Source: Patescibacteria group bacterium (GTDB lineage: Bacteria; Patescibacteriota; Patescibacteriia; Patescibacteriales; UBA12075). Taken from it: 64,000 nucleotides of DNA. The notes below the pieces were generated by a model that did no database searches, was not told where the DNA came from, and saw nothing but the letters and a program-made list of their open reading frames with translations. Numbering within the stretch: the first letter of the stretch is position 1; each line of letters opens with the position of its first letter. Below, one piece after another: positions 5,484 through 64,000 of this stretch. The DNA is taken from contig JAHILH010000005.1 in the NCBI GenBank assembly GCA_018897195.1, positions 745 through 64,744 on the forward strand, given 5' to 3'. The translations under genes and the position numbers were made by a program.

Positions 5484-5525
5484 CTCTCCCTCACCCCGAC
5501 CCTCTCCCGGCGGGGCGAGGGAGAA
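5484..5525 (+). repeat. GC-rich hairpin repeat, module A (REP-like)
   Basis: ctccctcaccccgaccctctcccggcggggcgagggag. Related copies at 8391, 37660 and 43023 (inverted). Lies just 3' of the dnaX stop. Confidence 0.8.
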
Positions 5526-5553
5526 TTAATTTCACTCGTTTGTTTTTAACAAA

Positions 5554-7218
5554 CTATCCAACTACTTTCCCACCAAATGTCTTCAACAGACTATCCAACA
5601 TATCGCCACCACCATTGCCACCTTCAACTTTCTCCACTGTCTCGGTGACTTGATTCTCGCGAATAATTTGCTCAGCTACTTCATCGGTCGGATCATTGTC
5701 AAAGCTAACCTCATGTGTTTCACTGATGTTTAGGGCTTCATTGACTATGGACTCGATTACTATCGTAGAACCAAAAATTTGTTTTAGGGCATCACTAACT
5801 ACTGCCTTCACCGCCGGTTCTTCAATACGATCACGGTGGAATTTGAACTTAAAAAATAATTTCAAAACTCCATTCTCAACAGCACCGGGAACACAAGCAC
5901 GTAAGACAAAACTCAAAGAGTGATTGTTTTTTTGCACCACCGCTAAAACATCATTCCATTTGGACATCATTTGTTGACTGCTAAAATTAACATTATCGCC
6001 CTGAGCATTAACCACTTGTACTGAATTTGGTTTCCGGGTTGGCTCTTGCCCCGTTTTTAAACCACTACCTGTGCCACTATTATCCGTAAAAACCGGGGCT
6101 GACATAGTTGGCGTTGAACATAATTCAATAATCGCCACCTCCACTGGTAATTGGATTATAAAACTTTCCTTAATTTCATTGCCAGCTTTAGTGAATTTTT
6201 CGATTGCGTTGATAACGCGACCAACCTCAATTTCCTTCAAAATTTTACTAATTTTCACTTCCACACCTTCGCCTAGCTCCAAACCAAATTTCTCAGACAA
6301 TTTCAAATTAATTTTACCCAACATTATCTTACGCAACAACTCAATCAAGTCTTTTAAAAATCTTTTTAAATCTACACCTTCGTCCATCACTTTATTCACC
6401 AAGGCAATCGCTGAGGCGGCATCTTTCTTGACCAATAGTTCAATCAAAGCAATCGCTTCGCCAATGTCACTACGAGGAATAACTAGGTTTGCGTCTTCTT
6501 GGGAAATACGACGCTTGCCATCTTTTATGTTTTCAGCAATAGCGATGATTTGTCCAAAAACACTTTCCGCATCACGCATATGTCCTTCTGACTGACGAGC
6601 AATATCTTCAAGAACCAAGTTATCGATTTCGATCTTTTCACTATTGGCAATATATTGCAATTTCTTTACCACATCAGTAATGTTAATGCGCTTAAAATCA
6701 AAACGCTGGCAACGAGAGATAATGGTCGCCGGAATCTTGTGCACTTCAGTTGTTGCTAAGATAAAGATAACATTCTTGGGTGGTTCTTCAATAACTTTCA
6801 AAAGGGCGTTAAAAGCCGAAATGGACAGCATGTGAACCTCGTCGATGATAAAGACTTTAAATTTTGCGCCCGAAGTAGAGATTTTTGAGACCGCGATGAT
6901 GTTCTCGCGAACATTGTCAACGCCAGTGTGACTCGCTGCATCAATCTCAATTACATCCACGCTCTTGCCAAGAGTAATTGCCTCACAGCTATCGCAGGTA
7001 TTACAAGGCTCACTTTCGCCCTCCTTGCGATTGACACAGTTAATTGCCTTAGCAAAGACACGCGCAATTGTAGTCTTACCAATACCGCGTGGACCACAAA
7101 AAAGATAAGCATGGGCAATCTTGTCCTGCTCAATTTCATATTTTAAAGTAGTTTTGATGTGATTTTGACCGACTAATTCATCAAAATTCTGCGGTCGGTA
7201 TTCTCTGTATATTGTCAT
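5554..7218 (-). CDS. dnaX: DNA polymerase III subunit gamma/tau
   Basis: GPRGIGKTT Walker A, Zn module CNTCDSCEAI, DEVHML, SRCQRF. Confidence 0.92.
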   Translation of the reverse strand: MTIYREYRPQNFDELVGQNHIKTTLKYEIEQDKIAHAYLFCGPRGIGKTTIARVFAKAINCVNRKEGESEPCNTCDSCEAITLGKSVDVIEIDAASHTGVDNVRENIIAVSKISTSGAKFKVFIIDEVHMLSISAFNALLKVIEEPPKNVIFILATTEVHKIPATIISRCQRFDFKRINITDVVKKLQYIANSEKIEIDNLVLEDIARQSEGHMRDAESVFGQIIAIAENIKDGKRRISQEDANLVIPRSDIGEAIALIELLVKKDAASAIALVNKVMDEGVDLKRFLKDLIELLRKIMLGKINLKLSEKFGLELGEGVEVKISKILKEIEVGRVINAIEKFTKAGNEIKESFIIQLPVEVAIIELCSTPTMSAPVFTDNSGTGSGLKTGQEPTRKPNSVQVVNAQGDNVNFSSQQMMSKWNDVLAVVQKNNHSLSFVLRACVPGAVENGVLKLFFKFKFHRDRIEEPAVKAVVSDALKQIFGSTIVIESIVNEALNISETHEVSFDNDPTDEVAEQIIRENQVTETVEKVEGGNGGGDMLDSLLKTFGGKVVG

Positions 7219-7230
7219 ATAATTTAATAA

Positions 7231-7403
7231 CCGTCATCCCCGCGAAGGCGGGGATCCAGGCGCCACAGATAGTGGATACATTATTATAGAGACTAATCTA
7301 AATATAAATATTGATAATAAATAATGCTTTGTAAATTTTAATCCTCCATATACCAAAAATAATCTATGAGGTACCTGGATCCCCGCCTTCGCGGGGATGA
7401 CGG
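7231..7403. mobile_element. MITE-like element: 30-bp perfect terminal inverted repeats around a 113-bp AT-rich core
   Basis: 7231-7260 (ccgtcatccccgcgaaggcggggatccagg) is the exact reverse complement of 7374-7403. Each arm also contains its own hairpin (ATCCCCGC gaag GCGGGGAT). Confidence 0.6.
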
Positions 7404-8390: not shown

Positions 8391-8434
8391 GACTTCCCCT
8401 CACCCCAACCCTCTCCCGCCGGGGCGAGGGAGTC
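8391..8434 (+). repeat. GC-rich hairpin repeat, module A (REP-like)
   Basis: gacttcccctcaccccaaccctctcccgccggggcgagggagtc, immediately 3' of the ATPase gene stop at 8438. Confidence 0.8.
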
Positions 8435-8437
8435 TTA

Positions 8438-10945
8438 TTAAACACTGGTTCGACGACGAATTTCCGCCTCAATAATACTGCGATCTTGGCCAAATTTGAG
8501 ACGGCTCAAAGTCTTTATTTTTTGTGCCATTCCCTCTCGCTCAATACCAGCAATCGGCCAAGGGCAATGCATGGAAAAAGGACGACTGGCCGTATTATCA
8601 ATAAGAAGTTTTGTATAAACAGAATATTTTTCAACATTTAATAAATCATACTGACTAAAGACAGGACTAAATTCTTTTTCCAAAAATTCCGCATCTTCGG
8701 TGCCAATTCTAAAACTCACCATCGAACCGACGTTACCAAAAACGGCGTCCTTAATTGTCGTGTCACCCTTATTGACCATCTGTCCGATATATTGATGAGC
8801 GATGGTTAAATTCAAACTATATTTACGCGCCTCGGACAAAATAGAGCAAATTGAATCGGTGGTAAAATTTTGAAACTCGTCGATATATAAATAAAAATCC
8901 TTACGTTGTGCTTGCGGAATATCCGTACGCGACAAAGCATTCATTAAAATTTTACTAATTATGATCATGCCCAAAAGATAGGCATTCATCTCGCCAATGG
9001 CACCTTTGGACAAATCCACCAAAAGAATTTTTTGTTTATCCATAATATCGCGGAAATTGAACGAACTATTTTGTTGGCCGATAATCGGGCGCATCGTGTC
9101 ATTGGAAATAAACTGTGTCAACTTGGATGTAATATAGGGCACGACATTCGCCAGGGCCGCATCACCACCCGCCTTCTCGGCTTCTTGCTTCCAAAAATCA
9201 ACCACAGTTTGGTCCGCACAGCGCTCTAATTTCATTTTTCGAAAAGCTGGATTAGCCAACACTTTTGGCACTTCCATTAAAGTTGAACCGGATTCTGGAT
9301 CAGACATAATCAAGAGCAAGGCATTGCGCATATATTGTTCAAAGATTGGACCACCGGTCGCCTTTAAATCGTACAACTTATCAAAAATCTTAATCATCTC
9401 ATTAATTACAAAAGTTTTTTGCTCCGGATATTTCGGATCAAACTCAATCAAATTCAAAGCCATCGGCCGTTCAATGTCCGCCGGTCGGAATAAAATAACG
9501 TTTTCTGCTCTCTCGGGCGGAATGCGGGACAAGATATCGCTTACCAAGTCACCATGCGGATCCAAAACGCAAACGCCCTCACCATTAATAATATCTTGGA
9601 CAGCCATATTGGCAATGAATTGTGACTTACCACCACCAGACTTACCAACTACATACATATGACGACGACGATCGTCACGCTTGATGTGCACGTCTTTTTT
9701 AACACCACGATGCACATTATAACCAAGATAAACCCCTTCACTTGGCGTGTCTACCGGTGCCGGGGCATGACGAGCAGTTAACCATAAAATATTCGGCGTC
9801 TCGGTGTCTTTTAGGGGTAGATGAAAAAGACTAGCCATCTCTGTTGTATTTAACAAAAATGATTTACCTTCATTAAAACGACGATAGATAAAATCATGAA
9901 TAATGCGCTTCTTGTTGCCGGTATTAATACGGCTTGCAAAGCTGTTGCCATATTCATAAGAATTATATTGACTAAAAGCACTCGACAAATTTTCTAGATA
10001 GGTTTGCGCTCGTCCCTTATCCCGCGCTGCCACCACGATGCGTAAATTTACATCCATACCCGCACGTGCATTTTTTTCTTCAATACCTTTTAGAGCCTCT
10101 TGCTCCATTACAGTTAACATTTTTTGATTCTCGGACCTATTTGCCAAAGAAGGATCAGCCGAATGAAATACATCACCCAAAAAACCTAAAATTTTATGCA
10201 AGACCCCGGAGCTAAGTGCCTCTGATAAAGATTTTTTTTGATTAGCCTTACGAACCACCTCGCTCGCCTTGTAGTGCCAAGAATTTTTTGCACTACGAAT
10301 AGTATATTGGATCGCCAAACCCTCATCTTCATCCACCTTGGACATAACATTGATCAAAGAATTTGTTGAATCAGTATCTTGCTTTAAATAAGTACGCAAA
10401 GGTAAAACAAAATGTCTTGTTGTTTTTAAAGTGCCGGCCAAAATTTCAGACTTGTGATTAAAAATATTATAATCCTTCACCTCTTCCAATGACGCGTCCG
10501 GATAATGCGCATTGATTTGTTGTTCAATATAGCGCTCTGCTCCGCGTGGGGCCACGATATAGAAATGAATCTTTTTCTTATTCGCCACAATCTCAAAAGA
10601 ATAGCTATCATTACGACCATATAACCAAGCCTTAAAACCCCGCTCCGCCCGCAAGCCACCTATAGAAGAAAAGATTGTCTCACCTTTGGCAATTTCTTCG
10701 TGCAAGGATTGAACCCGATTTGTTTCATTGCCCTGGTTATTTCCTTGTTTGTCTTGAGGTAAACGGACTAAAAAAATAACGTAACGCTGAAAAGTCTTCT
10801 GCAAATATTTTTCCCGAATTATCAAGCGCGCAATATATAAAACCAAAAACAAAACAGCAAAAGCCGCCACATACCAAAACCAGCCACTCAAATCAATAAC
10901 ATAATCGTTGTTTATATTTTGTTGTAGTCCGTAATCCATAGACAA
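8438..10945 (-). CDS. membrane-anchored P-loop ATPase of the TraD/VirD4 (type IV coupling protein)-like family
   Basis: N-terminal TM helix, Walker A VVGKSGGGKS, Walker B YLYIDEFQNF, and AHQYIGQM near the C-terminus as in T4CPs. Confidence 0.75.
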   Translation of the reverse strand: MSMDYGLQQNINNDYVIDLSGWFWYVAAFAVLFLVLYIARLIIREKYLQKTFQRYVIFLVRLPQDKQGNNQGNETNRVQSLHEEIAKGETIFSSIGGLRAERGFKAWLYGRNDSYSFEIVANKKKIHFYIVAPRGAERYIEQQINAHYPDASLEEVKDYNIFNHKSEILAGTLKTTRHFVLPLRTYLKQDTDSTNSLINVMSKVDEDEGLAIQYTIRSAKNSWHYKASEVVRKANQKKSLSEALSSGVLHKILGFLGDVFHSADPSLANRSENQKMLTVMEQEALKGIEEKNARAGMDVNLRIVVAARDKGRAQTYLENLSSAFSQYNSYEYGNSFASRINTGNKKRIIHDFIYRRFNEGKSFLLNTTEMASLFHLPLKDTETPNILWLTARHAPAPVDTPSEGVYLGYNVHRGVKKDVHIKRDDRRRHMYVVGKSGGGKSQFIANMAVQDIINGEGVCVLDPHGDLVSDILSRIPPERAENVILFRPADIERPMALNLIEFDPKYPEQKTFVINEMIKIFDKLYDLKATGGPIFEQYMRNALLLIMSDPESGSTLMEVPKVLANPAFRKMKLERCADQTVVDFWKQEAEKAGGDAALANVVPYITSKLTQFISNDTMRPIIGQQNSSFNFRDIMDKQKILLVDLSKGAIGEMNAYLLGMIIISKILMNALSRTDIPQAQRKDFYLYIDEFQNFTTDSICSILSEARKYSLNLTIAHQYIGQMVNKGDTTIKDAVFGNVGSMVSFRIGTEDAEFLEKEFSPVFSQYDLLNVEKYSVYTKLLIDNTASRPFSMHCPWPIAGIEREGMAQKIKTLSRLKFGQDRSIIEAEIRRRTSV

Positions 10946-29499: not shown

Positions 29500-31431
29500 T
29501 TGAAATATTTATTCAAAATTCAATCCGCCGCGGCGGACAAAATTCGCAACATGTTCCTATTTCACGAAAAATATAAACACCACTATAAATGGCTGAGCGT
29601 TCTCTCTGTCATTTTTTTTACAATCATTGTGGCTGTTTTAACAACCTATTCTGTTTTTGAAAAAAAATATCAAAACCGAATTTATCCCGGTGTTTTTTTG
29701 GGCACCACTAATCTTAGCGGCTTATCAAAAAATGATGCTGCGGCTTTAATTAATCAAAAAATTGATCAGATAAATCAAGATGGTATTGTTTTCTATTACC
29801 GTACCGACAACGCCCCGCTTTATCCCCTCATCTCCTCAATAGAGGGCGATTTAGCTTATCAAATTATTTATTTTGACACGGAAAAGACTGTTAACTCGGC
29901 AATTAACTATGGCCGTAACGGGAAATTTTATAACAATCTCTTAGAAAAAATTACCGCCCTGAGTTATAAATACCAAATTGCCATGGACTACACTATTTAT
30001 GAGCAAGAAGTTGAAAAATTCCTAAATGACAATTTCAAAAGATTCGAAACACCGGCTAAGAACGCTGAGCTTATTTATAAATTAAACAAAAATGATAAAA
30101 CCGTTACTTTCGATATCAAGGATGAGACTTATGGGCAAATTATCAACATTGCCCAAGCTAAAACCACTCTACGCGATAGACTAAACACTCTCAACCAAGA
30201 ACCAATTGAGCTTAGTGCTGAAATTAACTACCCGCAAATAAACAAAACTGATGTCCTAAACATTGAGACGATGGCGCAAAAATTTTACAGCAAAGTGCCT
30301 ATTACTTTAAAATACAATATCAAAAAATGGACATTGGACGCAGACGATGTTTTAGCCTGGCTGCAACTAAAACTTGACCAAGAAGCAAAAGAAAAAAAAG
30401 TCTTCATAGGCCTAAACTCCGACAAAATTAAAGATTATCTCAAAACAACCATCGCTTCAAAAATAGACAAAGAAGCAATTGATCCCAAATTCAATATCGA
30501 AAATGGCAAAGTATCTGAATTTCAAACCGGACAAGAAGGTATCGCTCTTGATATTGAGGCAACAGCCAAAAAGATTGAATTCTTTTTAAACAGCGACGAA
30601 GAAAACAAAGAGCTTGAAGTTATCACTGAAATAAAAAAATCCCTATCAGCTGTCGAAATTGAAAATCTTGGCATCAAGGAATTACTCGGCACTGGTCATT
30701 CAAAATTTACCGGTTCACCCAAAAATAGAATTCACAACATCAAGACTGGGGCCAATGCTGTCAACGGCACCATTATCAAACCAGACGAAGAATTCTCCCT
30801 CATTGCCACACTTGGTAAGATAGACAAAGACTCTGGCTATTTACCAGAGTTGGTTATCAAAGACAACAAAACCGTTCCAGAATATGGCGGCGGTCTTTGC
30901 CAAGTCGGCACCACAATCTTTCGAGGCACCGTTGATACTGGGCTACCGGTCACTGCACGCCGTAATCACTCCTATCGTGTCTCCTATTACGAACCAGCCG
31001 GCACTGATGCAACAATCTATGACCCTTGGCCAGATTACCGATTTCAAAACGACACCAATAATCACATCTTAATTTTATCAAGAATGGAAGGCTATGATTT
31101 ATATTTTGATTTCTGGGGCACAAAAGATGGTCGTATCGCTACTTCCACCTACCCCACAATCTACAACATCGTCAAACCGGCACCAACTAAAATAATCGAA
31201 ACGGCCGACCTTGGGCCCGGAGAGAAAAAGTGCACAGAACACGCCCACAATGGCGCTGACGCCTATTTCGACTATAAAGTCACCTATCCCCTCCTAGGCA
31301 CTTCTACTGAGCCAGTGGTCAAGAACACGCGTTTCCGCTCACACTACGTTCCATGGCAGGAAGTTTGCTTAGTTGGCATTGATACCAACAAAAACAAGGC
31401 CACTTCAACTGAAACGACTATAAAAAAATAA
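29500..31431 (+). CDS. VanW-family protein, membrane anchored
   Basis: N-terminal TM helix and the VanW core YGGGLCQVGTTIFRG. The start codon is uncertain (TTG at 29500 or a downstream ATG). Confidence 0.8.
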   Translation: MKYLFKIQSAAADKIRNMFLFHEKYKHHYKWLSVLSVIFFTIIVAVLTTYSVFEKKYQNRIYPGVFLGTTNLSGLSKNDAAALINQKIDQINQDGIVFYYRTDNAPLYPLISSIEGDLAYQIIYFDTEKTVNSAINYGRNGKFYNNLLEKITALSYKYQIAMDYTIYEQEVEKFLNDNFKRFETPAKNAELIYKLNKNDKTVTFDIKDETYGQIINIAQAKTTLRDRLNTLNQEPIELSAEINYPQINKTDVLNIETMAQKFYSKVPITLKYNIKKWTLDADDVLAWLQLKLDQEAKEKKVFIGLNSDKIKDYLKTTIASKIDKEAIDPKFNIENGKVSEFQTGQEGIALDIEATAKKIEFFLNSDEENKELEVITEIKKSLSAVEIENLGIKELLGTGHSKFTGSPKNRIHNIKTGANAVNGTIIKPDEEFSLIATLGKIDKDSGYLPELVIKDNKTVPEYGGGLCQVGTTIFRGTVDTGLPVTARRNHSYRVSYYEPAGTDATIYDPWPDYRFQNDTNNHILILSRMEGYDLYFDFWGTKDGRIATSTYPTIYNIVKPAPTKIIETADLGPGEKKCTEHAHNGADAYFDYKVTYPLLGTSTEPVVKNTRFRSHYVPWQEVCLVGIDTNKNKATSTETTIKK

Positions 31432-31446
31432 AATTTAGCAAAATAA

Positions 31447-31477
31447 AAAACCCAATCACTCTCACTGATTGGGTTTT
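31447..31477. terminator. bidirectional intrinsic terminator
   Basis: AAAACCCAATCA / 7-nt loop / TGATTGGGTTTT. Confidence 0.75.
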
Positions 31478-31488
31478 GCTTTTTTGAA

Positions 31489-31677
31489 TCATGACTGATT
31501 CCTCACGCACTTAATATTCAACGAAACAGTAACTCGTTTTCCATCCGCGGTTTTATGCCTGATATTAATCGCATCGATACTAAATTTATTTTCTTTTTCA
31601 AAGTGTTTAAGAAGCTCAAGAATGTCGCGTTCAAGCTTTCTTGTTTGCTCTCGATGCTCTTCGGAATTTATAGTCAT
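31489..31677 (-). CDS. hypothetical 62-aa protein downstream of the structured RNA
   Basis: GGAGGTG lies 6 nt upstream of the ATG at 31677 (MTINSEEHREQTRKLERD...). The ORF track starts at 31692. Confidence 0.5.
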   Translation of the reverse strand: MTINSEEHREQTRKLERDILELLKHFEKENKFSIDAINIRHKTADGKRVTVSLNIKCVRNQS

Positions 31678-31715
31678 TGCCGACACCTCCAATTTATTAG
31701 TATTAATTCTTAGTT

Positions 31716-31895
31716 AAAAAAAAGACCAACTTAAGTGGGCAGGCAAGAAATTTCTGCTAGGTATTCCCGAGCCAATTGCAGTAAATAATTTTTATCTTAC
31801 TTACTTCAATTGGCCCATAAAACCCTAACATTAAATCCCCATGCTTGTCGTGCCTAACCCACTCAAAATGGCCTTCCATCCTTTTTTTGATTAAT
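31716..31895 (-). ncRNA. candidate rod-like structured RNA (sRNA or terminator-containing leader), unassigned family
   Basis: Long interrupted hairpin with about nine G-U pairs that form only on the minus strand. A promoter lies upstream and a U8 run follows directly after the 3' arm. Confidence 0.5.
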
Positions 31896-31900
31896 AAAGT

Positions 31901-31929
31901 AATATATCACACCCAGAGAAAAATGTCAA
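31901..31929 (-). promoter_or_regulatory. sigma70-type promoter with extended -10
   Basis: On the minus strand: TTGACA (31929-31924), a 17-nt spacer ending in TGa, then TATATT (31906-31901). Confidence 0.6.
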
Positions 31930-31979
31930 TAGCTATCCCACAAAACTGAGTCTTAATTGCTAATATTAAATAAAAAAAT

Positions 31980-32036
31980 ACGACCAGAAAAGGTCGTTTT
32001 TAGCAAATAAAAAAAAGAAATTATTGCTAATTTCTT
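31980..32036 (-). terminator. two tandem intrinsic terminators after the 32050 gene
   Basis: AAGAAATTA/TAATTTCTT (32015-32036) and ACGACC/GGTCGT (31980-31997). Each is followed by a T-run on the minus strand. Confidence 0.65.
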
Positions 32037-32049
32037 TTTTTATTTAAAA

Positions 32050-32538
32050 TTACAATTTTAACAAGCGCGCCAATCCCTCAGACAAGGGCAAATCAGTTCT
32101 TTCTAAATCCTCGTGCAAATATCTTAACAAATATTCGCGTATTGCAATTGGGTCCATTCCGTCTAATTGTACAGAAATTCGATGTTTTATGCCACTTTTG
32201 AACTCAAAATACAGATTTCGCACTTCCTGCTTCGGCTTATAGAGAACTGAAAAATTCTTTAATTCATCATAGTCATAGAATTTTCGCCCCACGATCACGC
32301 CTTCATCGGTCAAAGTTATATTTATCATCATCGGCTCCTGACCATGATTTAAGACATATAGCAAGACTGCAATAATGACAATTACGGCAAAAAGAAAGTC
32401 GTGAGTTAAAAAAGAAAAAACCAGAAAACCTAAAGCCACCAAACCGGCAATGATATACCAATTTTGAGATCGTTCATAGGCAATATATTCAGGCACATGC
32501 CAAGAAATCACCTCCTCTTTTTTTTCATTATTTTCCAT
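32050..32538 (-). CDS. two-TM membrane protein with C-terminal PH-like domain, unknown function
   Basis: 162 aa with two adjacent hydrophobic helices after WHVPEYIAYERSQNWY. Confidence 0.65.
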   Translation of the reverse strand: MENNEKKEEVISWHVPEYIAYERSQNWYIIAGLVALGFLVFSFLTHDFLFAVIVIIAVLLYVLNHGQEPMMINITLTDEGVIVGRKFYDYDELKNFSVLYKPKQEVRNLYFEFKSGIKHRISVQLDGMDPIAIREYLLRYLHEDLERTDLPLSEGLARLLKL

Positions 32539-32695
32539 TTTTTTAAATATTTTTAAATATTTGACTTTTTTCTGAATATTTTATATATTTATTATAGCAA
32601 TATTTATATATCTCGTAAATAGGTGTATAAATAGAAGCAGTCTAGATATGCAATAATCTATATATCTAGTTATTTTTTTTATTGCAAAGTTTTTT

Positions 32696-32785
32696 GGAGA
32701 GATGGCTGAGTGGCTTAAAGCAACGGATTGCTAATCCGTCGTACGGGTTTATCCCGTACCGAGGGTTCAAATCCCTCTTTCTCCG
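32696..32785 (+). tRNA. tRNA-Ser (anticodon GCU)
   Basis: Acceptor GGAGAGA/TTTCTCC, anticodon arm ACGGA-TTGCTAA-TCCGT, long variable arm, T loop TTCAAAT. Confidence 0.88.
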
Positions 32786-32815
32786 CAGAAAAAAATAAAA
32801 ATCAAAATTAATTTC

Positions 32816-32902
32816 GGAGGGGTGCTAGAGCGGTTTAATAGGACAGTCTTGAAAACTGTTGAACCTTCACGGGTTCCGAGAGTTCGAATCTCTCCTCCTC
32901 CG
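32816..32902 (+). tRNA. tRNA-Ser (anticodon UGA)
   Basis: Acceptor GGAGGGG/CTCCTCC, anticodon arm ACAGT-CTTGAAA-ACTGT, long variable arm, T loop TTCGAAT. Confidence 0.88.
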
Positions 32903-32951
32903 CACTTGTAAAAAACTCCGCTACGTTGCGGATTTTTTTACAAAACGAATA

Positions 32952-33023
32952 GCTTTCGTAGTTCAGTGGATAGAACATGGGATTGCGGTTCCCAGGACTT
33001 AGGTTCGATTCCTAACGAAAGCA
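32952..33023 (+). tRNA. tRNA-Arg (anticodon GCG)
   Basis: Acceptor GCTTTCG/CGAAAGC, D arm GTTCAGTGGATAGAAC, anticodon arm TGGGA-TTGCGGT-TCCCA, T arm TTAGG-TTCGATT-CCTAA. Confidence 0.8.
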
Positions 33024-33024
33024 C

Positions 33025-34857: not shown

Positions 34858-35012
34858 ATAGCTATAATATACGCTCTATGTTTGAAAAATGCAATATACA
34901 CAACTTGGCTAATATTAAAAATATTATTAATAATTTCAAAAATTGACAAAATCAAAAATTATGCTAATCTATATAAAATATCAACCCATAAAATTACACC
35001 AGGAGGAGCACC

Positions 35013-35399: not shown

Positions 35400-37553
35400 A
35401 TGCTTACTCTTGATACCAAAATTGAAAACCTTAGCAAGGTTGGCGCAACTACCGCCAAAAGACTTAAAAATATTGGCCTGGAAACAATCCAAGATCTTTT
35501 GTTTTACTTCCCATTTCGTTATGACGATTTTAGTGAGGTCGTTACTATTAAAGATTTGCAACCGAATACGGTCGTTAATATCGTTGGTGAAATTGATTTG
35601 ATTCAAAATAAAAAAAGTCTACGCACCAAGATGAATATTACTGAAGCCTTGGTTAATGACGGGACAGATACGATTAAGGTAATTTGGTTCAATCAACCTT
35701 TTATTGCCAAGACTTTGCATAATGGCGACCGCGTGTCATTGTCTGGCAAAGTAGACGGTGACTTAAATAATCTCACACTCAAATCCCCGAGCTATGAGAA
35801 AATAAATACTCAGCAAACTACGAACACCCAAGGCCTAGTGCCTAACTACCACCTCACCGCCAATATTACCCAGAAACAAATACGCTATTTAATCAAACAA
35901 GCCTTGCCGGCGGTTTATCTTGTTCCCGAGTGGATTCCAATTAATATTATCAAGCGAAACAATTTTATCAGCATTGATGATGCCTTAAAAAATTTACATT
36001 TCCCTAAAACTGAAAAAATGTTAGCAGACGCAAAACGTCGTTTGAGTTTTGATGAATTATTTTTAACCCAATTACAATCACAACTTCTTAAAAAAGAAAT
36101 TACTTTTAATAATGCGCCAGTCATTGAATTTAAAGAGGGGGAAACTAAGGAATTTGTAAAATCACTACCCTTTGAACTAACTGATGCGCAGAAAAAATCC
36201 GCTTGGCAGATCCTTATGGATATGCAAAAAGATAAACCAATGTCACGCTTGCTTGAAGGTGATGTTGGTAGCGGCAAGACAATCACCGCTGTCGTGGCAA
36301 TGTTCAATGTCGCTTTGAATAAATACCAGTCGCTCATTATGGTGCCGACTGAAATTTTGGCTGGACAACATTATAATTCTATTTGCAAAACTTTGAGTAA
36401 TTCCAAGCTGCGCATTGCTCTGTTTACGCGCACCGAGAAGAAAATTAATACAGTCCTGGGTAAGTTGTCTAAGAATAAATTATTGGAAATAATCAAAAAC
36501 GGCGAAGCAGATATTATCATCGGTACCCACGCCTTGATTCAAGAAGATTTCAAGTGTCACAACTTAGGTCTAGCGATTATCGACGAACAACATCGTTTCG
36601 GCGTTGAACAACGCAAAAAATTACTCGCCAAAGCAAACAATAATGCTCCCTCTCCTGGCCAGGAGAGCACCTGTGCTGTGCCTGGCATAAAGGTCGGGGT
36701 GAGGTTGTCACCACAAGCACAATCGCTGTCTCCACATCTACTCTCAATGACAGCAACCCCAATTCCCCGCTCGCTAGCATTGGTTCTATACGGTGAACTC
36801 GATATTTCCATTATCAATGAACTACCAAAAAACCGTAAAAAAATTATCACAAGTCTCGTCTCAGAACAAAATCGCACTGATGCTTATAAATTTATTTACA
36901 AACAAGTCAACGACGGTCGCCAGGTTTTTGTCGTCTGCCCCCTCATTGATCCATCGGATAAAATGGGTGTTAAATCAGTGACCGAAGAATTTAAAAAATT
37001 AAACGAAGTGATATTTCCCGACCTCGAAATCGCGCTCTTGCATGGCAAACTAAAATCTGAAGAAAAAGAGCAAATCATGCAAGATTTTGTCGCCAACAAA
37101 ACCAAAATTCTCGTCTCCACCTCCGTCATTGAAGTCGGTGTCGACGTGCCCAATGCCACCATTATGATGATTGAGGGCGCCGACCGCTTCGGCCTTGCCC
37201 AACTACACCAATTCCGCGGCCGTGTCGGTCGAGGTGCGCACCAATCATATTGCTTCCTATTCAGCGACAGCGACTCGCCAAAGACCAAAGAAAGATTACA
37301 AGCTATGGAGAAGCACCATGACGGTTTTACACTCGCCAAAATCGATCTCAAACAACGCGGTCCTGGTGAAGTATACGGCACTAATCAAAAAGGTTTTCCA
37401 GAATTTAAGATTGCCAATTTATTTGATCACGAATTAATAGAGATTGCCCAGAATGAGGCAGCTAAACTTATAGATGAAAATCCAGAATTAAAAGATTTGC
37501 CAGACTTAAAGGAAAAAATTGAGGACTGGAAAAATAAAATTCATTTGGAATAA
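35400..37553 (+). CDS. recG: ATP-dependent DNA helicase RecG, carrying an in-frame repeat-derived insertion
   Basis: Wedge/OB N-terminus, GDVGSGKT, IIDEQHRFGV, MTATPIPRSL, QLHQFRGRVGRG. About 29 extra residues lie between motif II and TATPIPR. Confidence 0.92.
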   Translation: MLTLDTKIENLSKVGATTAKRLKNIGLETIQDLLFYFPFRYDDFSEVVTIKDLQPNTVVNIVGEIDLIQNKKSLRTKMNITEALVNDGTDTIKVIWFNQPFIAKTLHNGDRVSLSGKVDGDLNNLTLKSPSYEKINTQQTTNTQGLVPNYHLTANITQKQIRYLIKQALPAVYLVPEWIPINIIKRNNFISIDDALKNLHFPKTEKMLADAKRRLSFDELFLTQLQSQLLKKEITFNNAPVIEFKEGETKEFVKSLPFELTDAQKKSAWQILMDMQKDKPMSRLLEGDVGSGKTITAVVAMFNVALNKYQSLIMVPTEILAGQHYNSICKTLSNSKLRIALFTRTEKKINTVLGKLSKNKLLEIIKNGEADIIIGTHALIQEDFKCHNLGLAIIDEQHRFGVEQRKKLLAKANNNAPSPGQESTCAVPGIKVGVRLSPQAQSLSPHLLSMTATPIPRSLALVLYGELDISIINELPKNRKKIITSLVSEQNRTDAYKFIYKQVNDGRQVFVVCPLIDPSDKMGVKSVTEEFKKLNEVIFPDLEIALLHGKLKSEEKEQIMQDFVANKTKILVSTSVIEVGVDVPNATIMMIEGADRFGLAQLHQFRGRVGRGAHQSYCFLFSDSDSPKTKERLQAMEKHHDGFTLAKIDLKQRGPGEVYGTNQKGFPEFKIANLFDHELIEIAQNEAAKLIDENPELKDLPDLKEKIEDWKNKIHLE
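36645..36707 (+). repeat. GC-rich hairpin repeat, module B-like, inside the recG coding sequence
   Basis: gctccctctcctggccaggagag...ggtcggggtgaggttg. Compare the intergenic copy gttccctctccttgccaggagagggtcagggtgaggtag at 37574. Confidence 0.7.
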
Positions 37554-37573
37554 ATAACAAAGAGACCATAACA

Positions 37574-37612
37574 GTTCCCTCTCCTTGCCAGGAGAGGGTC
37601 AGGGTGAGGTAG
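37574..37612 (+). repeat. GC-rich hairpin repeat, module B
   Basis: CCCTCTCC ttgcca GGAGAGGG hairpin plus TCAGGGTGAGGT. An inverted copy is at 43078-43116. Confidence 0.8.
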
Positions 37613-37659
37613 TTTTCTGTGTATAAAACAAAATTATTACATCATACCATCTTCCAACA

Positions 37660-37697
37660 CCCCCTCACCCCGACCCTCTCCCGCTGGGGCGATGGAG
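37660..37697 (+). repeat. GC-rich hairpin repeat, module A (degenerate copy)
   Basis: ccccctcaccccgaccctctcccgctggggcgatggag. Confidence 0.7.
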
Positions 37698-37772
37698 ACA
37701 TAGCACAAACTTCTTGGAATAATAAAAAGAGCAGAATTAAATCTGCTCTTTTTTAAAATCTCAGTTATTATT

Positions 37773-43022: not shown

Positions 43023-43062
43023 GACTCCCTCGCCCCGCCGGGAGAGGGTTGGGGTGAGGGAG
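43023..43062 (-). repeat. GC-rich hairpin repeat, module A (inverted orientation)
   Basis: gactccctcgccccgccgggagagggttggggtgagggag is the reverse complement of the 8391 copy, apart from one or two bases. Confidence 0.8.
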
Positions 43063-43077
43063 CCGTCACCGAAAATC

Positions 43078-43116
43078 TACCTCACCCTGCCCCTCTCCTA
43101 TCCAGGAGAGGGAACT
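43078..43116 (-). repeat. GC-rich hairpin repeat, module B (inverted orientation)
   Basis: ctacctcaccctgcccctctcctatccaggagagggaac, the reverse complement of the 37574 copy with a few changes. Confidence 0.8.
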
Positions 43117-43137
43117 ATATTGCTAATTTTTAATTAT

Positions 43138-51025: not shown

Positions 51026-51047
51026 ATTCACTTACCTGAAAAAAACC

Positions 51048-51080
51048 AAGGCATAACCCTGAGAAGTTATGCCTTTTTTA
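51048..51080. terminator. bidirectional terminator, copy 1 of an identical 31-nt sequence
   Basis: AAGGCATAAC / CCTGAGAA / GTTATGCCTT followed by TTT. The same string recurs at 52254. Confidence 0.75.
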
Positions 51081-51098
51081 TTTTGCCAAAAAAATAAT

Positions 51099-51416: not shown

Positions 51417-51591
51417 ATATTTATTCTTAAATTAAAACTATATACATCATAAAAATATCATAAAATATATAAATAGTCACGACAAATCATTCTTGACATA
51501 TCTTGCGAATTGTGCTAACATTGTATATTCTACAAAAAGTAGACAGCACATTCAACAATCAATACAACTAAACAATATAAGAAGGAAAGAA

Positions 51592-52230
51592 ATGCTTAAA
51601 AAAATCCTAATGATTATAAACGGTGCAAGAAGCAGAGAATCTTTTTTTCTAATCATCGCCTCATTTTTTCCAACGACTGATTGGAGATATAAGCTTATTG
51701 AAAAAGCTTACAATGATGCAAAAGACGCTTTTCGCGGCAGATTTCGGGACAGTGGCGACGAAAGATATTTTGAACACATCCGAGCAGTTACTCTTATCCT
51801 CATTCTTTATCTGAGGGTTACAAATTACAAACTGATTGTCGCTGCCCTTCTGCATGATATCGTCGAAGATATTCCATCTTGGACAATAGCACGCGTAACA
51901 AAAGAATACGGCGAAGAAATTGCAGCATACGTCGACTCACTGACAAAGCCAAGTCATCTCTTTAAAGACAAAGAGAAATGCAACGAAGTTTACCATCGAC
52001 GATTCGAGAATGCCAGACGAGCATTTTTCCTAATCAAGCTCGCTGATCGACTTCATAATTTGCTAACCCTCTGGGCCTGCTCAAAAGAAAAAAGATTACG
52101 AAAGGTAATTGAAACAGAAATTCACTACCTTCCTTATGCCGAAAAGCATTTCATTCTTTATCATGAAATACTAGCGGCTATTGAATCGTTGAAACAAGAA
52201 AAAAAGTCCACCAAAAAGAAAACTGTGTAA
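51592..52230 (+). CDS. HD-domain (p)ppGpp-hydrolase-like (SpoT/Mesh1-type) protein
   Basis: YFEHIRAV..., AALLHDIVEDI, KLADRLHNL. Start moved to the ATG at 51592 (AAGGAA upstream) because the track start at 51493 coincides with a TTGACA box. Confidence 0.7.
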   Translation: MLKKILMIINGARSRESFFLIIASFFPTTDWRYKLIEKAYNDAKDAFRGRFRDSGDERYFEHIRAVTLILILYLRVTNYKLIVAALLHDIVEDIPSWTIARVTKEYGEEIAAYVDSLTKPSHLFKDKEKCNEVYHRRFENARRAFFLIKLADRLHNLLTLWACSKEKRLRKVIETEIHYLPYAEKHFILYHEILAAIESLKQEKKSTKKKTV

Positions 52231-52253
52231 ACAGTAAAGGAGTAAAAATACAA

Positions 52254-52285
52254 AAGGCATAACCCTGAGAAGTTATGCCTTTTTA
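52254..52285. terminator. bidirectional terminator, copy 2 of the identical 31-nt sequence
   Basis: aaggcataaccctgagaagttatgccttttt, identical to 51048-51078. Confidence 0.75.
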
Positions 52286-52299
52286 ATTTACACTAATTA

Positions 52300-52767
52300 T
52301 TAATGATTACTTTTTAATTCTAACAAGCGCTGATACTGCCACTCTCGCTCCTTTATAACCCTTGCCAGAACATCGCCTTTTTTAACATTATCTCTAATCG
52401 CTGTCGCTGCATAAATCGCCGCCACAATTGCATGACCAGGCGCATGCACCGTCGCCACCGCCTGTCCAGCCGCCCGCGCCGCGGAACGTGCCGCACTATA
52501 TTCCTCAGCATCGCGCGCCGCTGCATGTGACGCCAGAGACGCCCCACGAATAACAGCCATCTTAAATACACCCGTCTTCACCCACAAACGCCCCACCGCA
52601 ATCGCCAATCGCGGACGTTTGTCGCCTGTATATTTTTTCTCAAAATAAGGCAACGCCCGCTTCGCGCAATCACACGCCCAAATCACCAAGGTTTTCTTAT
52701 CCGTTTTCCAGGCCAATGCAGCGATTTGTTCATCTAATTCAGTTTTGACCATTATTGGTTTTTTCAT
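52300..52767 (-). CDS. Imm5-like putative immunity protein (Ala-rich helical repeats)
   Basis: LVIWACDCAKRALPYFE...PRLAIAVGRLW...AARDAEEYSAARSAARAAGQAVATVHAPGHA. This matches the family as I remember it, with no search run. The gene is locally GC-rich. Confidence 0.45.
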   Translation of the reverse strand: MKKPIMVKTELDEQIAALAWKTDKKTLVIWACDCAKRALPYFEKKYTGDKRPRLAIAVGRLWVKTGVFKMAVIRGASLASHAAARDAEEYSAARSAARAAGQAVATVHAPGHAIVAAIYAATAIRDNVKKGDVLARVIKEREWQYQRLLELKSNH

Positions 52768-62767: not shown

Positions 62768-62895
62768 GTTTTTTACATTTTCTGTTATTTTAATCCATTT
62801 CTTTACCCTTGACTGATTATCTGAATAATATATAATATAAATATCAATACCTGTCACGCCTCTTAACAATGCGAAACCGACAGGTTTTTTTGCGT

Positions 62896-64000
62896 TTAGA
62901 ACGGCTTGCCAATTCCCAGCTCATCGCAAAACTCCGCAATCTTATTTTGCAAACCAATCTCATTAGCATTCAATTTCCTCAGGCTCTCTGCCACCGCTTC
63001 AATATCAATTACCTCCTCCTCTTCAAAAGTATCCACATAGCGTGGAATATTCAAATTGTATTCATTCTCACGAATCTCCTCCATTGTTGCCCGATGGGAG
63101 TATTTCTCGATCTCTTTGCGCTCTTTGTAGGTCACAAAAATCTTCGCAATGTTATCATCAGTCAATTTGTTTTGATTCTTTTCTTTTACAAAATCTTTAG
63201 ACGCATCAATAAACAGAATACCCTCGTCATCACGACGGCATTTCTTAAACACCAACACAGTAGCAGGGATTGAAGTGCCATAAAAAAGATTAGCGGGCAA
63301 ACCAATTACGGCATCGAGGTAGTTTTGTTTTTCAATGATATGCTTGCGAATATGCCCCTCAGCTCCAGAGCGAAACAAGGCGCCATGTGGTAACACAACA
63401 GCCATAGTGCCATTATCCGCCAAGTGGTAAAGCATGTGCGTCACAAAAGCGTAATCAGCCGCACTTTTTGGCGCTAGTCGTCCGTATTGTGAGAATCTGT
63501 CGTCATGAGCTAGTTGCGGATCAGTGTCGCCCTTCCATTGAGCCGAGAACGGTGGATTGGCTACTATTGCCTCAGCTTTAAGATCGGCGTGCATATCCTC
63601 TTTGAGCGTATCACCGTGGCGAATATCGAAATGGTCGAAGTGAACGCCATGCAAGATCATGTTCATGCGAGCCAAATTGTAAGTCGTTGGGTTTTGTTCT
63701 TGACCGAAATAACTAACCACATCAGTGTAGTCACCGATACGAAGCAAGAGTGAGCCAGAGCCACAAGTCGGATCATAGACAGACTTAATTCGTTTCTTGT
63801 CTTGAGACACAATCTGAGCCAACAGCCGAGAGATTTGGGCAGGGGTATAAAACTCACCGCCTTTCTTGCCAGCACCAGCAGCGAATTCGCCGATCAGGTA
63901 TTCATAGGCATCACCAAGTAAGTCACTCTTAGTGTCTTCCAGCTTGAAATCTATACCACTGAGCAAAGACAACACCTCAACTACCACTTCATTCTTTTGA
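62896..64000 (-). CDS. hsdM: type I restriction-modification methyltransferase subunit (partial; N-terminus beyond window)
   Basis: DPTCGSGSLL AdoMet motif and the catalytic motif IVANPPFS. The reading frame stays open to position 64000. Confidence 0.92.
   Translation of the reverse strand, partial: QKNEVVVEVLSLLSGIDFKLEDTKSDLLGDAYEYLIGEFAAGAGKKGGEFYTPAQISRLLAQIVSQDKKRIKSVYDPTCGSGSLLLRIGDYTDVVSYFGQEQNPTTYNLARMNMILHGVHFDHFDIRHGDTLKEDMHADLKAEAIVANPPFSAQWKGDTDPQLAHDDRFSQYGRLAPKSAADYAFVTHMLYHLADNGTMAVVLPHGALFRSGAEGHIRKHIIEKQNYLDAVIGLPANLFYGTSIPATVLVFKKCRRDDEGILFIDASKDFVKEKNQNKLTDDNIAKIFVTYKERKEIEKYSHRATMEEIRENEYNLNIPRYVDTFEEEEVIDIEAVAESLRKLNANEIGLQNKIAEFCDELGIGKPF

Follow-up and report, generated by a model that had tools for sequence, protein, structure and literature searches.

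Introduction

6S RNA is a rod with a closing stem and an apical stem-loop, in which the template lies on the 5′ strand and the 3′ strand of the central bubble carries a −10-like recognition element (PMC8876501). In the Rfam consensus of 6S RNA, the loops measure 16/13 and 12/13 nucleotides (nt), and about 50% of the nucleotides are paired. Another housekeeping-type RNA, the 4.5S RNA of the signal recognition particle (SRP), uses its internal loops as a protein-binding platform. Here we describe a candidate RNA gene, hereafter the rod RNA, on the minus strand of a 64,000-nt stretch of contig JAHILH010000005.1 from a Patescibacteria group bacterium (the window, within which all positions are given), and we compare it with these systems.

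Two further bodies of knowledge frame the locus. Hairpin-type riboswitches and leaders in which the aptamer stem doubles as the terminator include the HMP-PP/thiS, NMT1/xanthine and nhaA-I motifs. Ultra-small host-dependent bacteria are thought to possess very few regulators. Regulatory RNAs of the candidate phyla radiation (CPR) appear poorly documented, and our literature searches turned up neither a 6S RNA nor a comparable small RNA (sRNA) described from Patescibacteria.

Judged from its sequence, the rod RNA has its own promoter, a covarying structure, a terminator and a non-coding character, as a stand-alone sRNA does. The reading that we prefer, at somewhat better than an even chance, is that it is a stand-alone structured sRNA gene, restricted to one lineage as sampled, which probably serves as a protein-binding scaffold and whose terminator, probably leaky, would feed a short open reading frame (ORF) downstream.

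Structure of the rod RNA

The minus-strand RNA from 31895 to 31710 is predicted to fold into a single unbranched hairpin, with a minimum free energy (MFE) of −78.1 kcal/mol. Dinucleotide shuffles of the same sequence reach −39.8 ± 4.0 kcal/mol, which places the rod at a z-score of −9.7, and none of 200 shuffles folds as well. The plus-strand RNA has an MFE of only −43.7 kcal/mol. Under DNA parameters the difference between the strands almost vanishes (−29.5 versus −24.0), so the strand asymmetry is a property of RNA alone and stems from G-U pairs. An initial annotation of this DNA had proposed such a strand-specific fold, rather than a mere DNA palindrome, and had listed five helices; we recover all five within 1–3 nt. 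It was right that G-U pairs are present, and its count of about nine was too low: the rod has 62 consensus pairs (31876–31721), of which 12 are G-U. In total, ~72% of its nucleotides are paired. The elements of the fold, all on the minus strand, are as follows.

31851–31876 (−): closing stem P1, 5′ arm, pairing with 31721–31745; 24 pairs, with 100% of alignment cells paired and two compensatory pairs
31841–31850 (−): one-sided 10-nt bulge CGACAAGCAU, invariant in 7/7 sequences and unpaired in every MFE and consensus fold
31833–31840 (−): P2, 5′ arm GGGGAUUU, pairing with 31746–31753 (AAAUUUCU); the weakest helix, with three G-U pairs
31824–31830 (−): P3, 5′ arm UGUUAGG, pairing with 31755–31761; one compensatory change, G-C to U-A, in L087
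31818–31823 (−): internal loop, 5′ side GUUUUA, with three weak U-A/U-G pairs; 3′ side 31762–31767; slight variation in L162 and L163
31807–31817 (−): P4, 5′ arm, pairing with 31768–31778; three compensatory pairs, at alignment columns 70/110, 73/107 and 75/105
31780–31805 (−): variable apical stem P5 with an 8-nt loop; holds most of the compensatory pairs, and its loop sequences differ between lineages
31721–31778 (−): 3′ arm of the rod, with the partners of P4, P3, P2 and P1

The mean pair probability is at least 0.78 in every helix (0.78–1.00), except for the variable apical stem of locus L083, where it is 0.63. The centroid structure is the same as the MFE structure apart from terminal G-U and U-tail pairs. 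P2 has a pair probability of 0.90–0.94, and opening it would cost 6–7 kcal/mol. At about −77 kcal/mol, the rod dominates the ensemble, and we found no alternative fold that could act as an antiterminator. An internal 40-amino-acid (40-aa) ORF, 31757–31879, was considered as a coding gene and rejected, its ATG being ACG in L083.

Covariation and selection on the core

The alignment of seven distinct sequences, including the window's, supports the fold. Of its 422 pair cells, 99.1% hold a standard pair, and double changes are seen at 12 pairs. None of 500 shuffles (0.105 ± 0.010) reaches its covariation score of 0.190, while slid-register controls give 40–61% pairing and zero to four double changes. 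A consensus fold of four sequences already contains 11 compensatory pairs. Furthermore, a covariance model built for the family, R1, scores 155–195 bits on the sense strand versus 38–60 bits on the antisense strand. The initial annotation had named homologues as the test of the fold; the relatives do carry compensatory changes, at the 12 pairs given above, and a chance palindrome is therefore ruled out.

The middle of the rod is under purifying selection. A core of ~108 nt is 91–99% identical to the window in the other lineages, and the apical 33 nt are 30–79% identical. In the adjacent gene, which encodes a 162-aa protein, third codon positions are 51–59% and second positions 90–97% identical to the window. 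The 10-nt bulge, P2 and P3 are invariant in the alignment, as are the greater parts of the internal loop and of P4. The core is thus more conserved than even the second codon positions next door in the 162-aa gene, and selection of such strength implies a specific partner.

Promoter and predicted transcript ends

The transcript would be driven by the near-consensus minus-strand promoter that the initial annotation had placed at 31929–31901, namely TTGACA and TATATT with a 17-nt spacer and an extended −10. It matches 11 of 12 consensus positions and is the top promoter-like site within 31000–32700 in a promoter scan. The signals that bound the transcript are the following.

31924–31929 (−): −35 hexamer TTGACA; TTGACA or TTGACT in 7/7 lineages
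31901–31909 (−): extended −10, TGa TATATT (hexamer at 31906–31901); TGn TA(T/A)ATT in all lineages
31960–31970 (−): upstream motif TTTAATATTAG, 30 nt 5′ of the −35; invariant in 6/7 lineages, TTCAATATTAG in L162
31877–31895 (−): predicted start (~31895–31892, placed from the position of the −10) and A-rich 5′ leader AUUAAUCAAAAAAAGGAUG
31716–31723 (−): U8 tract, the predicted 3′ end of the sRNA, read from the sequence

The 17-nt spacer diverges between lineages, and the −35 and extended −10 are kept. The A-rich leader is semi-conserved among the aligned lineages. In the MFE structure, leader sequence GGA.UGGAA pairs with the 3′ U tail, a pairing that in the predicted fold can make the rod nearly blunt. 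A run of U5–U8 lies directly 3′ of the rod in every complete homologue, and in the window U8 together with P1 would form an intrinsic terminator.

The upstream motif TTTAATATTAG is an 11-mer with a palindromic core, TAATATTA, and it recurs elsewhere. Three exact copies occur in the window, 1747–1757(−), 31960–31970(−) and 34909–34919(−), each followed on its own strand, 14–30 nt further on, by a strong sigma-70-like promoter. At one mismatch or fewer there are 12 matches in the window against 4.5 expected (0/100 shuffles). Relatives at 51–53% identity keep the motif after the 162-aa gene (L063:3318, L064:1307, L066:1581), there in front of promoters that belong to other genes. The motif could be an UP element or a site bound by a regulator. 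Operator mimicry, in which RNA segment UUUAAUGUUAG would imitate this DNA motif, was considered and rejected, as the segment varies in L085 and L087.

Occurrence in related genomes

Relatives were gathered as contigs encoding the closest homologues of the 162-aa protein, itself a member of a well-populated Patescibacteria family. The seven distinct rod-RNA sequences all lie directly downstream of the gene for this protein, in close Parcubacteria relatives. The six other than the window's are listed here with the identity of the neighbouring protein to that of the window.

P0003 (L083/L084): 92%
P0106 (L163): 85%, over 57% of the query (partial protein)
P0004 (L085; L165 is the same lineage): 84%
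P0005 (L086): 78%
P0006 (L162): 78%
P0007 (L087): 72%

In relatives whose neighbouring protein is 63–65% identical (L088, L166–L168), the rod RNA is absent from the syntenic site; three loci in this range, searched with filters off, gave no real match, the top score being an 18-bit generic hairpin. More distant genomes were covered at syntenic loci: 80 genome loci around homologues of the 162-aa protein at 40–62% identity gave no nhmmer, blastn or covariance-model match. A loop-based pattern scan of metagenome contigs returned 70 matches, of which two were real, both identical to L083. Scanning viral contigs for this pattern yielded no real match, nor did blastn against collections of phages and plasmids. 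The rod RNA is present once in the 64-kb window and once per related locus.

Other features occupy the space 3′ of the 162-aa gene outside this clade. Long hairpins found there in other lineages were examined as possible homologues and set aside as unrelated, being terminators, transfer RNAs (tRNAs) or, in L034, a tandem array. The latter (L034:~950–1200, Falkowbacteria metagenome-assembled genome contig VMTK01000016.1) consists of at least eight tandem copies of a 28-nt unit, GTGTTTTGAGGCRAAGCCGAGTGTTTTT, without spacers, and directly follows the local homologue of the 162-aa gene. Many of the more distant relatives (L003–L082) have tRNA-like cloverleaf folds immediately 3′ of this gene, in the position taken by the rod RNA in the window's clade, and a tRNA-like sequence of this kind was read directly from the letters of L088. 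In the window, three tRNA genes (32696–33024) lie on the opposite side of the 162-aa gene.

The downstream small ORF and a leader reading

The rod RNA is followed by a small ORF and a second terminator, the former arranged with respect to the U run (31723–31716) as first annotated.

31489–31690 (−): Shine–Dalgarno (SD) sequence GGAGGTG (31690–31684) and 62-aa ORF (31677–31489), with its ATG at 31677, 38 nt after the U run
31447–31477 (−): bidirectional terminator hairpin closing the unit after the small ORF; equivalents follow the ORF in L165 and L087

Collinear ORFs of 58–62 aa with an SD sequence follow the RNA in four lineages (the window, L085/L165, L087 and L163), where they start ~25–50 nt after the U run and the SD is conserved. 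At the loci scanned (the window, L165 and L087), there is no promoter-like site between the rod RNA and the small ORF, in line with the earlier view that there is no room for a separate promoter. Because such a site is missing, the small ORF is probably expressed by terminator readthrough.

This organization suggests another role, that of a cis-acting leader or conditional terminator, in which a factor bound to the core would set termination at the U tract and so gate the small ORF. It has in its favour the SD-bearing ORF after the U run in those four lineages, the lack of an intervening promoter-like site, the second terminator that closes the unit, and the U run of just 5–6 nt in some lineages, which suggests incomplete termination. 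The locus thus shares with attenuating leaders a terminator hairpin and U tract before a promoterless ORF. It differs from them in the two other hallmarks, an alternative fold and a constant downstream gene. On the first, we found no competing antiterminator fold; the initial proposal of a conditional terminator is supported in part, by the lack of a promoter-like site before the ORF. On the second, the small ORF is absent from L083/L084, where, ~170 nt further on, there is a 111-aa lipoprotein-like gene that has a promoter-like site to itself. The rod RNA of L083 keeps its promoter and a core 98% identical to that of the window; since the core is intact where the ORF is gone, the RNA is maintained independently of it.

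The ORF product also fits a leader poorly. Its sequence is 18–25% identical between lineages, with no significant pairwise BLASTP match, against 91–99% for the core, a misfit to a co-adapted pair or to a dedicated regulator. The sole identical database entry is a protein of a Candidatus Parcubacteria bacterium. A search of 5.8 billion proteins, phmmer against 1.8 billion representatives, Pfam and NCBIfam returned only the protein's own cluster, and a profile built from the positional orthologues gained just one further sequence, which belongs to the L085 lineage. The AlphaFold2 model consists of a helix and a beta hairpin, with a predicted local distance difference test score of 79.5, and has no match in the PDB with E < 1. 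Family, homology and fold searches thus give the product no recognizable function. We consider the leader reading unlikely, if a serious contender. Of the two possibilities first put forward for this locus, a discrete sRNA fits better: the RNA is kept without the ORF in L083, and its core evolves more slowly than the ORF.

A model for the rod RNA and the remaining alternatives

On our preferred reading, that of a stand-alone sRNA, a strong sigma-70-type promoter with an extended −10 would start the transcript near 31895, and the transcript would fold co-transcriptionally into the 62-pair rod. The basal helix and U8 would act as an intrinsic terminator and release an RNA of ~165–180 nt (about 175), whose 5′ A-run could pair with its 3′ U-tail. 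The ~108-nt core (the bulge CGACAAGCAU, P2–P4 and the internal loop), near-invariant while compensated drift is confined to the apex and the extreme base, would present a sequence-specific binding platform to a partner that is most likely a protein, and the RNA would act in trans. A sequence-specific partner is suggested because the ~108 near-invariant nucleotides are mostly double-stranded, with G-U pairs, and exceed what a terminator or an antisense seed needs. The terminator is probably leaky, and readthrough would be the only evident source of messenger RNA (mRNA) for the small ORF in most lineages. The sequences themselves show the fold and its strand specificity, the covariation, the conserved promoter and terminator, purifying selection on the core and the survival of the RNA where the ORF is gone; that the locus is transcribed, that the RNA binds a protein in trans and that readthrough expresses the ORF is what we infer from them.

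Several points weigh against this reading. The transcript and both of its ends are predictions, and the binding partner is deduced from conservation. Most core pairs, including those of P2, never vary and so lend the fold neither covariation support nor refutation; for P2 in particular, its invariance means that covariation speaks neither for nor against it. The family appears confined, as far as searched, to one narrow Parcubacteria clade (neighbouring protein at least 72% identical), and limited divergence among such close kin could explain part of the conservation, a concern offset by the third codon positions of the neighbouring gene, which are near saturation. Finally, the small ORF is closely linked to the RNA in four of five testable lineages, so that a cis-acting role may still apply.

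The rod RNA could also be a 6S-like decoy of RNA polymerase, in which the bulge, with P2 melted, would serve as a template, the sigma-70 holoenzyme would be sequestered, and synthesis of a product RNA would bring release. The length of ~175 nt, the closing stem between the 5′ and 3′ ends, the conserved centre with a variable apex, and the strong promoter agree with such a role. As in 6S RNA, the unpaired stretch lies on the 5′ strand, where 6S has its template (PMC8876501). Were P2 to open, at a cost of 6–7 kcal/mol, the result would be a 20/9-nt loop, close to the 16/13 bubble of Rfam 6S. In the ground state, however, there are 0 nt opposite the bulge, and hence no 3′ bubble strand to carry a −10-like element. 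RF00013 and the 6S-like models give no match at E ≤ 10, whereas E. coli ssrS, run as a positive control, reaches 139.8 bits with the 6S model (family threshold 46.4 bits). Moreover, ~72% of the rod is paired versus ~50% in the 6S consensus, and its narrow clade among the syntenic loci searched would be unusual for a housekeeping regulator. This makes the decoy clearly unlikely.

A broader variant deserves mention because of what it would mean. It is a speculation, and we rate it low: the rod RNA might be a CPR-specific global regulator that binds a core housekeeping machine, for instance a structurally re-invented analogue of 6S in which the permanent bubble gives way to a template bulge on one side and a G-U-rich helix that can melt. 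If this were true, it would be a previously unknown class of riboregulator in ultra-small host-dependent bacteria, and a partner such as RNA polymerase or another core machine would show how reduced organisms regulate themselves. Otherwise, the rod RNA is a well-defined new RNA family with a working covariance model, R1, useful for annotating Parcubacteria genomes. Nothing yet indicates an unusual mechanism. The locus is a cleanly delimited, covariation-backed sRNA gene in a roughly megabase-scale genome with little room for non-essential sequence, and its support from structure and selection is unusually clean.

As a base-pairing antisense sRNA, the rod RNA would use the bulge or another exposed segment as a seed for mRNAs. 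The 10-nt bulge is indeed invariant and unpaired, and its complement, AUGCUUGUCG, includes a start codon. The target search, which covered 64 kb of the genome, found five sites complementary to the bulge at one mismatch or fewer versus 3.8 expected, the only exact match being the gene itself. The best duplex with 51 initiation regions reaches −16.2 kcal/mol versus a shuffled-seed mean of −17.5, and 69% of the shuffled seeds do as well. In addition, ~108 nt of mostly double-stranded conserved sequence lies far beyond the need of a seed, and we find the antisense role very unlikely.

Scarcely credible, and refuted as far as sequence analysis allows by copy number, covariation and loss of the start codon, is the idea of a DNA-level element (a repeat or miniature inverted-repeat transposable element (MITE), a single-stranded DNA hairpin such as an origin, an attC-like site or an IS200-like end, or a chance palindrome) or of a 40-aa coding gene: the long imperfect inverted repeat and the overlapping ATG-bearing ORF that might suggest it are set against a copy number of one in the window and at each related locus, no match in viral, phage and plasmid collections, neighbours such as SecA, RecG, MgsA, HD, HSP20 and VanW with no transposase, integrase, Rep or reverse transcriptase (RT), a strand asymmetry seen with RNA parameters alone, a conserved promoter and U tract, and the ACG that replaces the ATG in L083.

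Gene neighbourhood and other elements in the window

The rod RNA lies among ordinary chromosomal genes. Upstream are the 162-aa DUF5673-like membrane protein, three tRNAs, an HD protein, MgsA and RecG; downstream and convergent are a VanW-like protein, then DUF3006 and HSP20; farther away are SecA and a DHH protein. None of the genes near the rod RNA encodes an RT, a Cas protein, a transposase, an integrase or a Rep protein, and a test for a retron found no RT domain in the genes scanned ~8 kb on each side. One further feature separates the rod RNA from the 162-aa gene.

31972–32035 (−): two terminator hairpins of the upstream 162-aa gene, AGAAATTAGCAATAATTTCT with a T run, and ACGACC..GGTCGT with a T run

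These hairpins would insulate the rod-RNA promoter from the 162-aa gene. The first, at 32009–32035(−) (AGAAATTAGCAATAATTTCT with its T run), is near-invariant including its loop in five aligned lineages; its flanks diverge, and L162 and L163 have diverged versions. Its conservation appears to exceed what a terminator normally needs.

Several elements elsewhere in the window are recorded here in their own right. A family of intergenic palindromes rich in GC (such as CCCTCACCCCGACCCTCTCCCGSCGGGGCGAGGGAG and CTCTCCTGGCCAGGAGAGGG), with the look of repetitive extragenic palindromic (REP) sequences or MITEs, stands out as repeats in the otherwise AT-rich genome at 5486–5544, 8396–8453, 36638–36667, 37573–37616, 37661–37718 and 43023–43122, and similar GC-rich elements follow the 162-aa gene in two relatives (L162:560–600 and L163:350–480). 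A pair of GC-rich inverted repeats of 37 nt, 7231–7267 and 7367–7403, 92% complementary and 99 nt apart, is intergenic and upstream of gene 5554–7218(−). The terminator-like hairpin element AAGGCATAACCCTGAGAAGTTATGCCTTTTT is present as two 60-nt copies, 80% identical (51039–51098 and 52245–52304), which flank gene 51493–52230. An Rfam abiF motif at 62850–62885(+), at 45.3 bits versus a threshold of 37, overlaps the start of a 134-aa ORF, 62869–63273(+).

Comparison with known RNA families

The initial annotation recognized no known riboswitch or sRNA family in the rod RNA, and Rfam concurs: searches with Rfam 15, at gathering thresholds on the whole window and at E ≤ 10 on 701 nt and 196 nt, gave the rod RNA no family match, the 6S and SRP models included, and returned for it only generic microRNA-precursor hairpin noise on both strands. 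Dispersed near-identical copies, as expected of a MITE or REP sequence, do not occur in the partial genomes searched, where the 64-kb window and every related locus hold a single copy; in the initial annotation, many near-identical copies would have marked a MITE.

6S RNA and Ms1 are the closest in outline. Like them, the rod RNA would be ~175–185 nt long and transcribed from a strong promoter of its own. It too is a predicted rod whose 5′ and 3′ ends meet in a closing stem; its middle is conserved, its apical stem varies, and its 5′ strand contains an unpaired stretch. Of the features that define 6S membership, it has a rod of ~150–200 nt with a 5′/3′ closing stem and an apical stem-loop, and in its predicted and consensus folds it lacks the large two-sided central bubble, having instead a 10-nt bulge with 0 nt opposite. 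The 6S-like architecture that had been suggested for it does not hold up in this respect. Compared by sequence and predicted fold, the rod RNA further differs from 6S in matching no covariance model, in a one-sided bulge where 6S has a 16/13 bubble and a 12/13 loop, in being far more paired, in its unusually invariant sequence and in its restriction to one narrow Parcubacteria clade. We do not file it as a member of the 6S family because it has neither a model match nor an unpaired 3′ strand.

With the 4.5S SRP RNA, the rod RNA shares a single long hairpin, conserved internal loops and a stand-alone gene. The conserved part of SRP RNA, however, is the apex (domain IV, with its GNRA tetraloop), whereas the apex of the rod is its most variable part, and SRP models do not match the rod RNA at E ≤ 10. 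The hairpin-type riboswitches resemble it in that a hairpin with conserved internal loops runs into a U tract before an ORF. Unlike these riboswitches, the rod is four to five times longer, has no alternative fold and no Rfam match, and precedes a fast-evolving orphan gene that is missing in one lineage.

The unit as a whole is built like the dual-output sRNA-mRNA units, with a promoter, a structured RNA, a terminator, an SD-bearing promoterless ORF and a second terminator; it departs from them in that readthrough at the rod RNA is suggested by the absence of promoter-like sites alone. Taken by its sequence features, the rod RNA is a new family within a known kind, the stand-alone structured bacterial sRNA.

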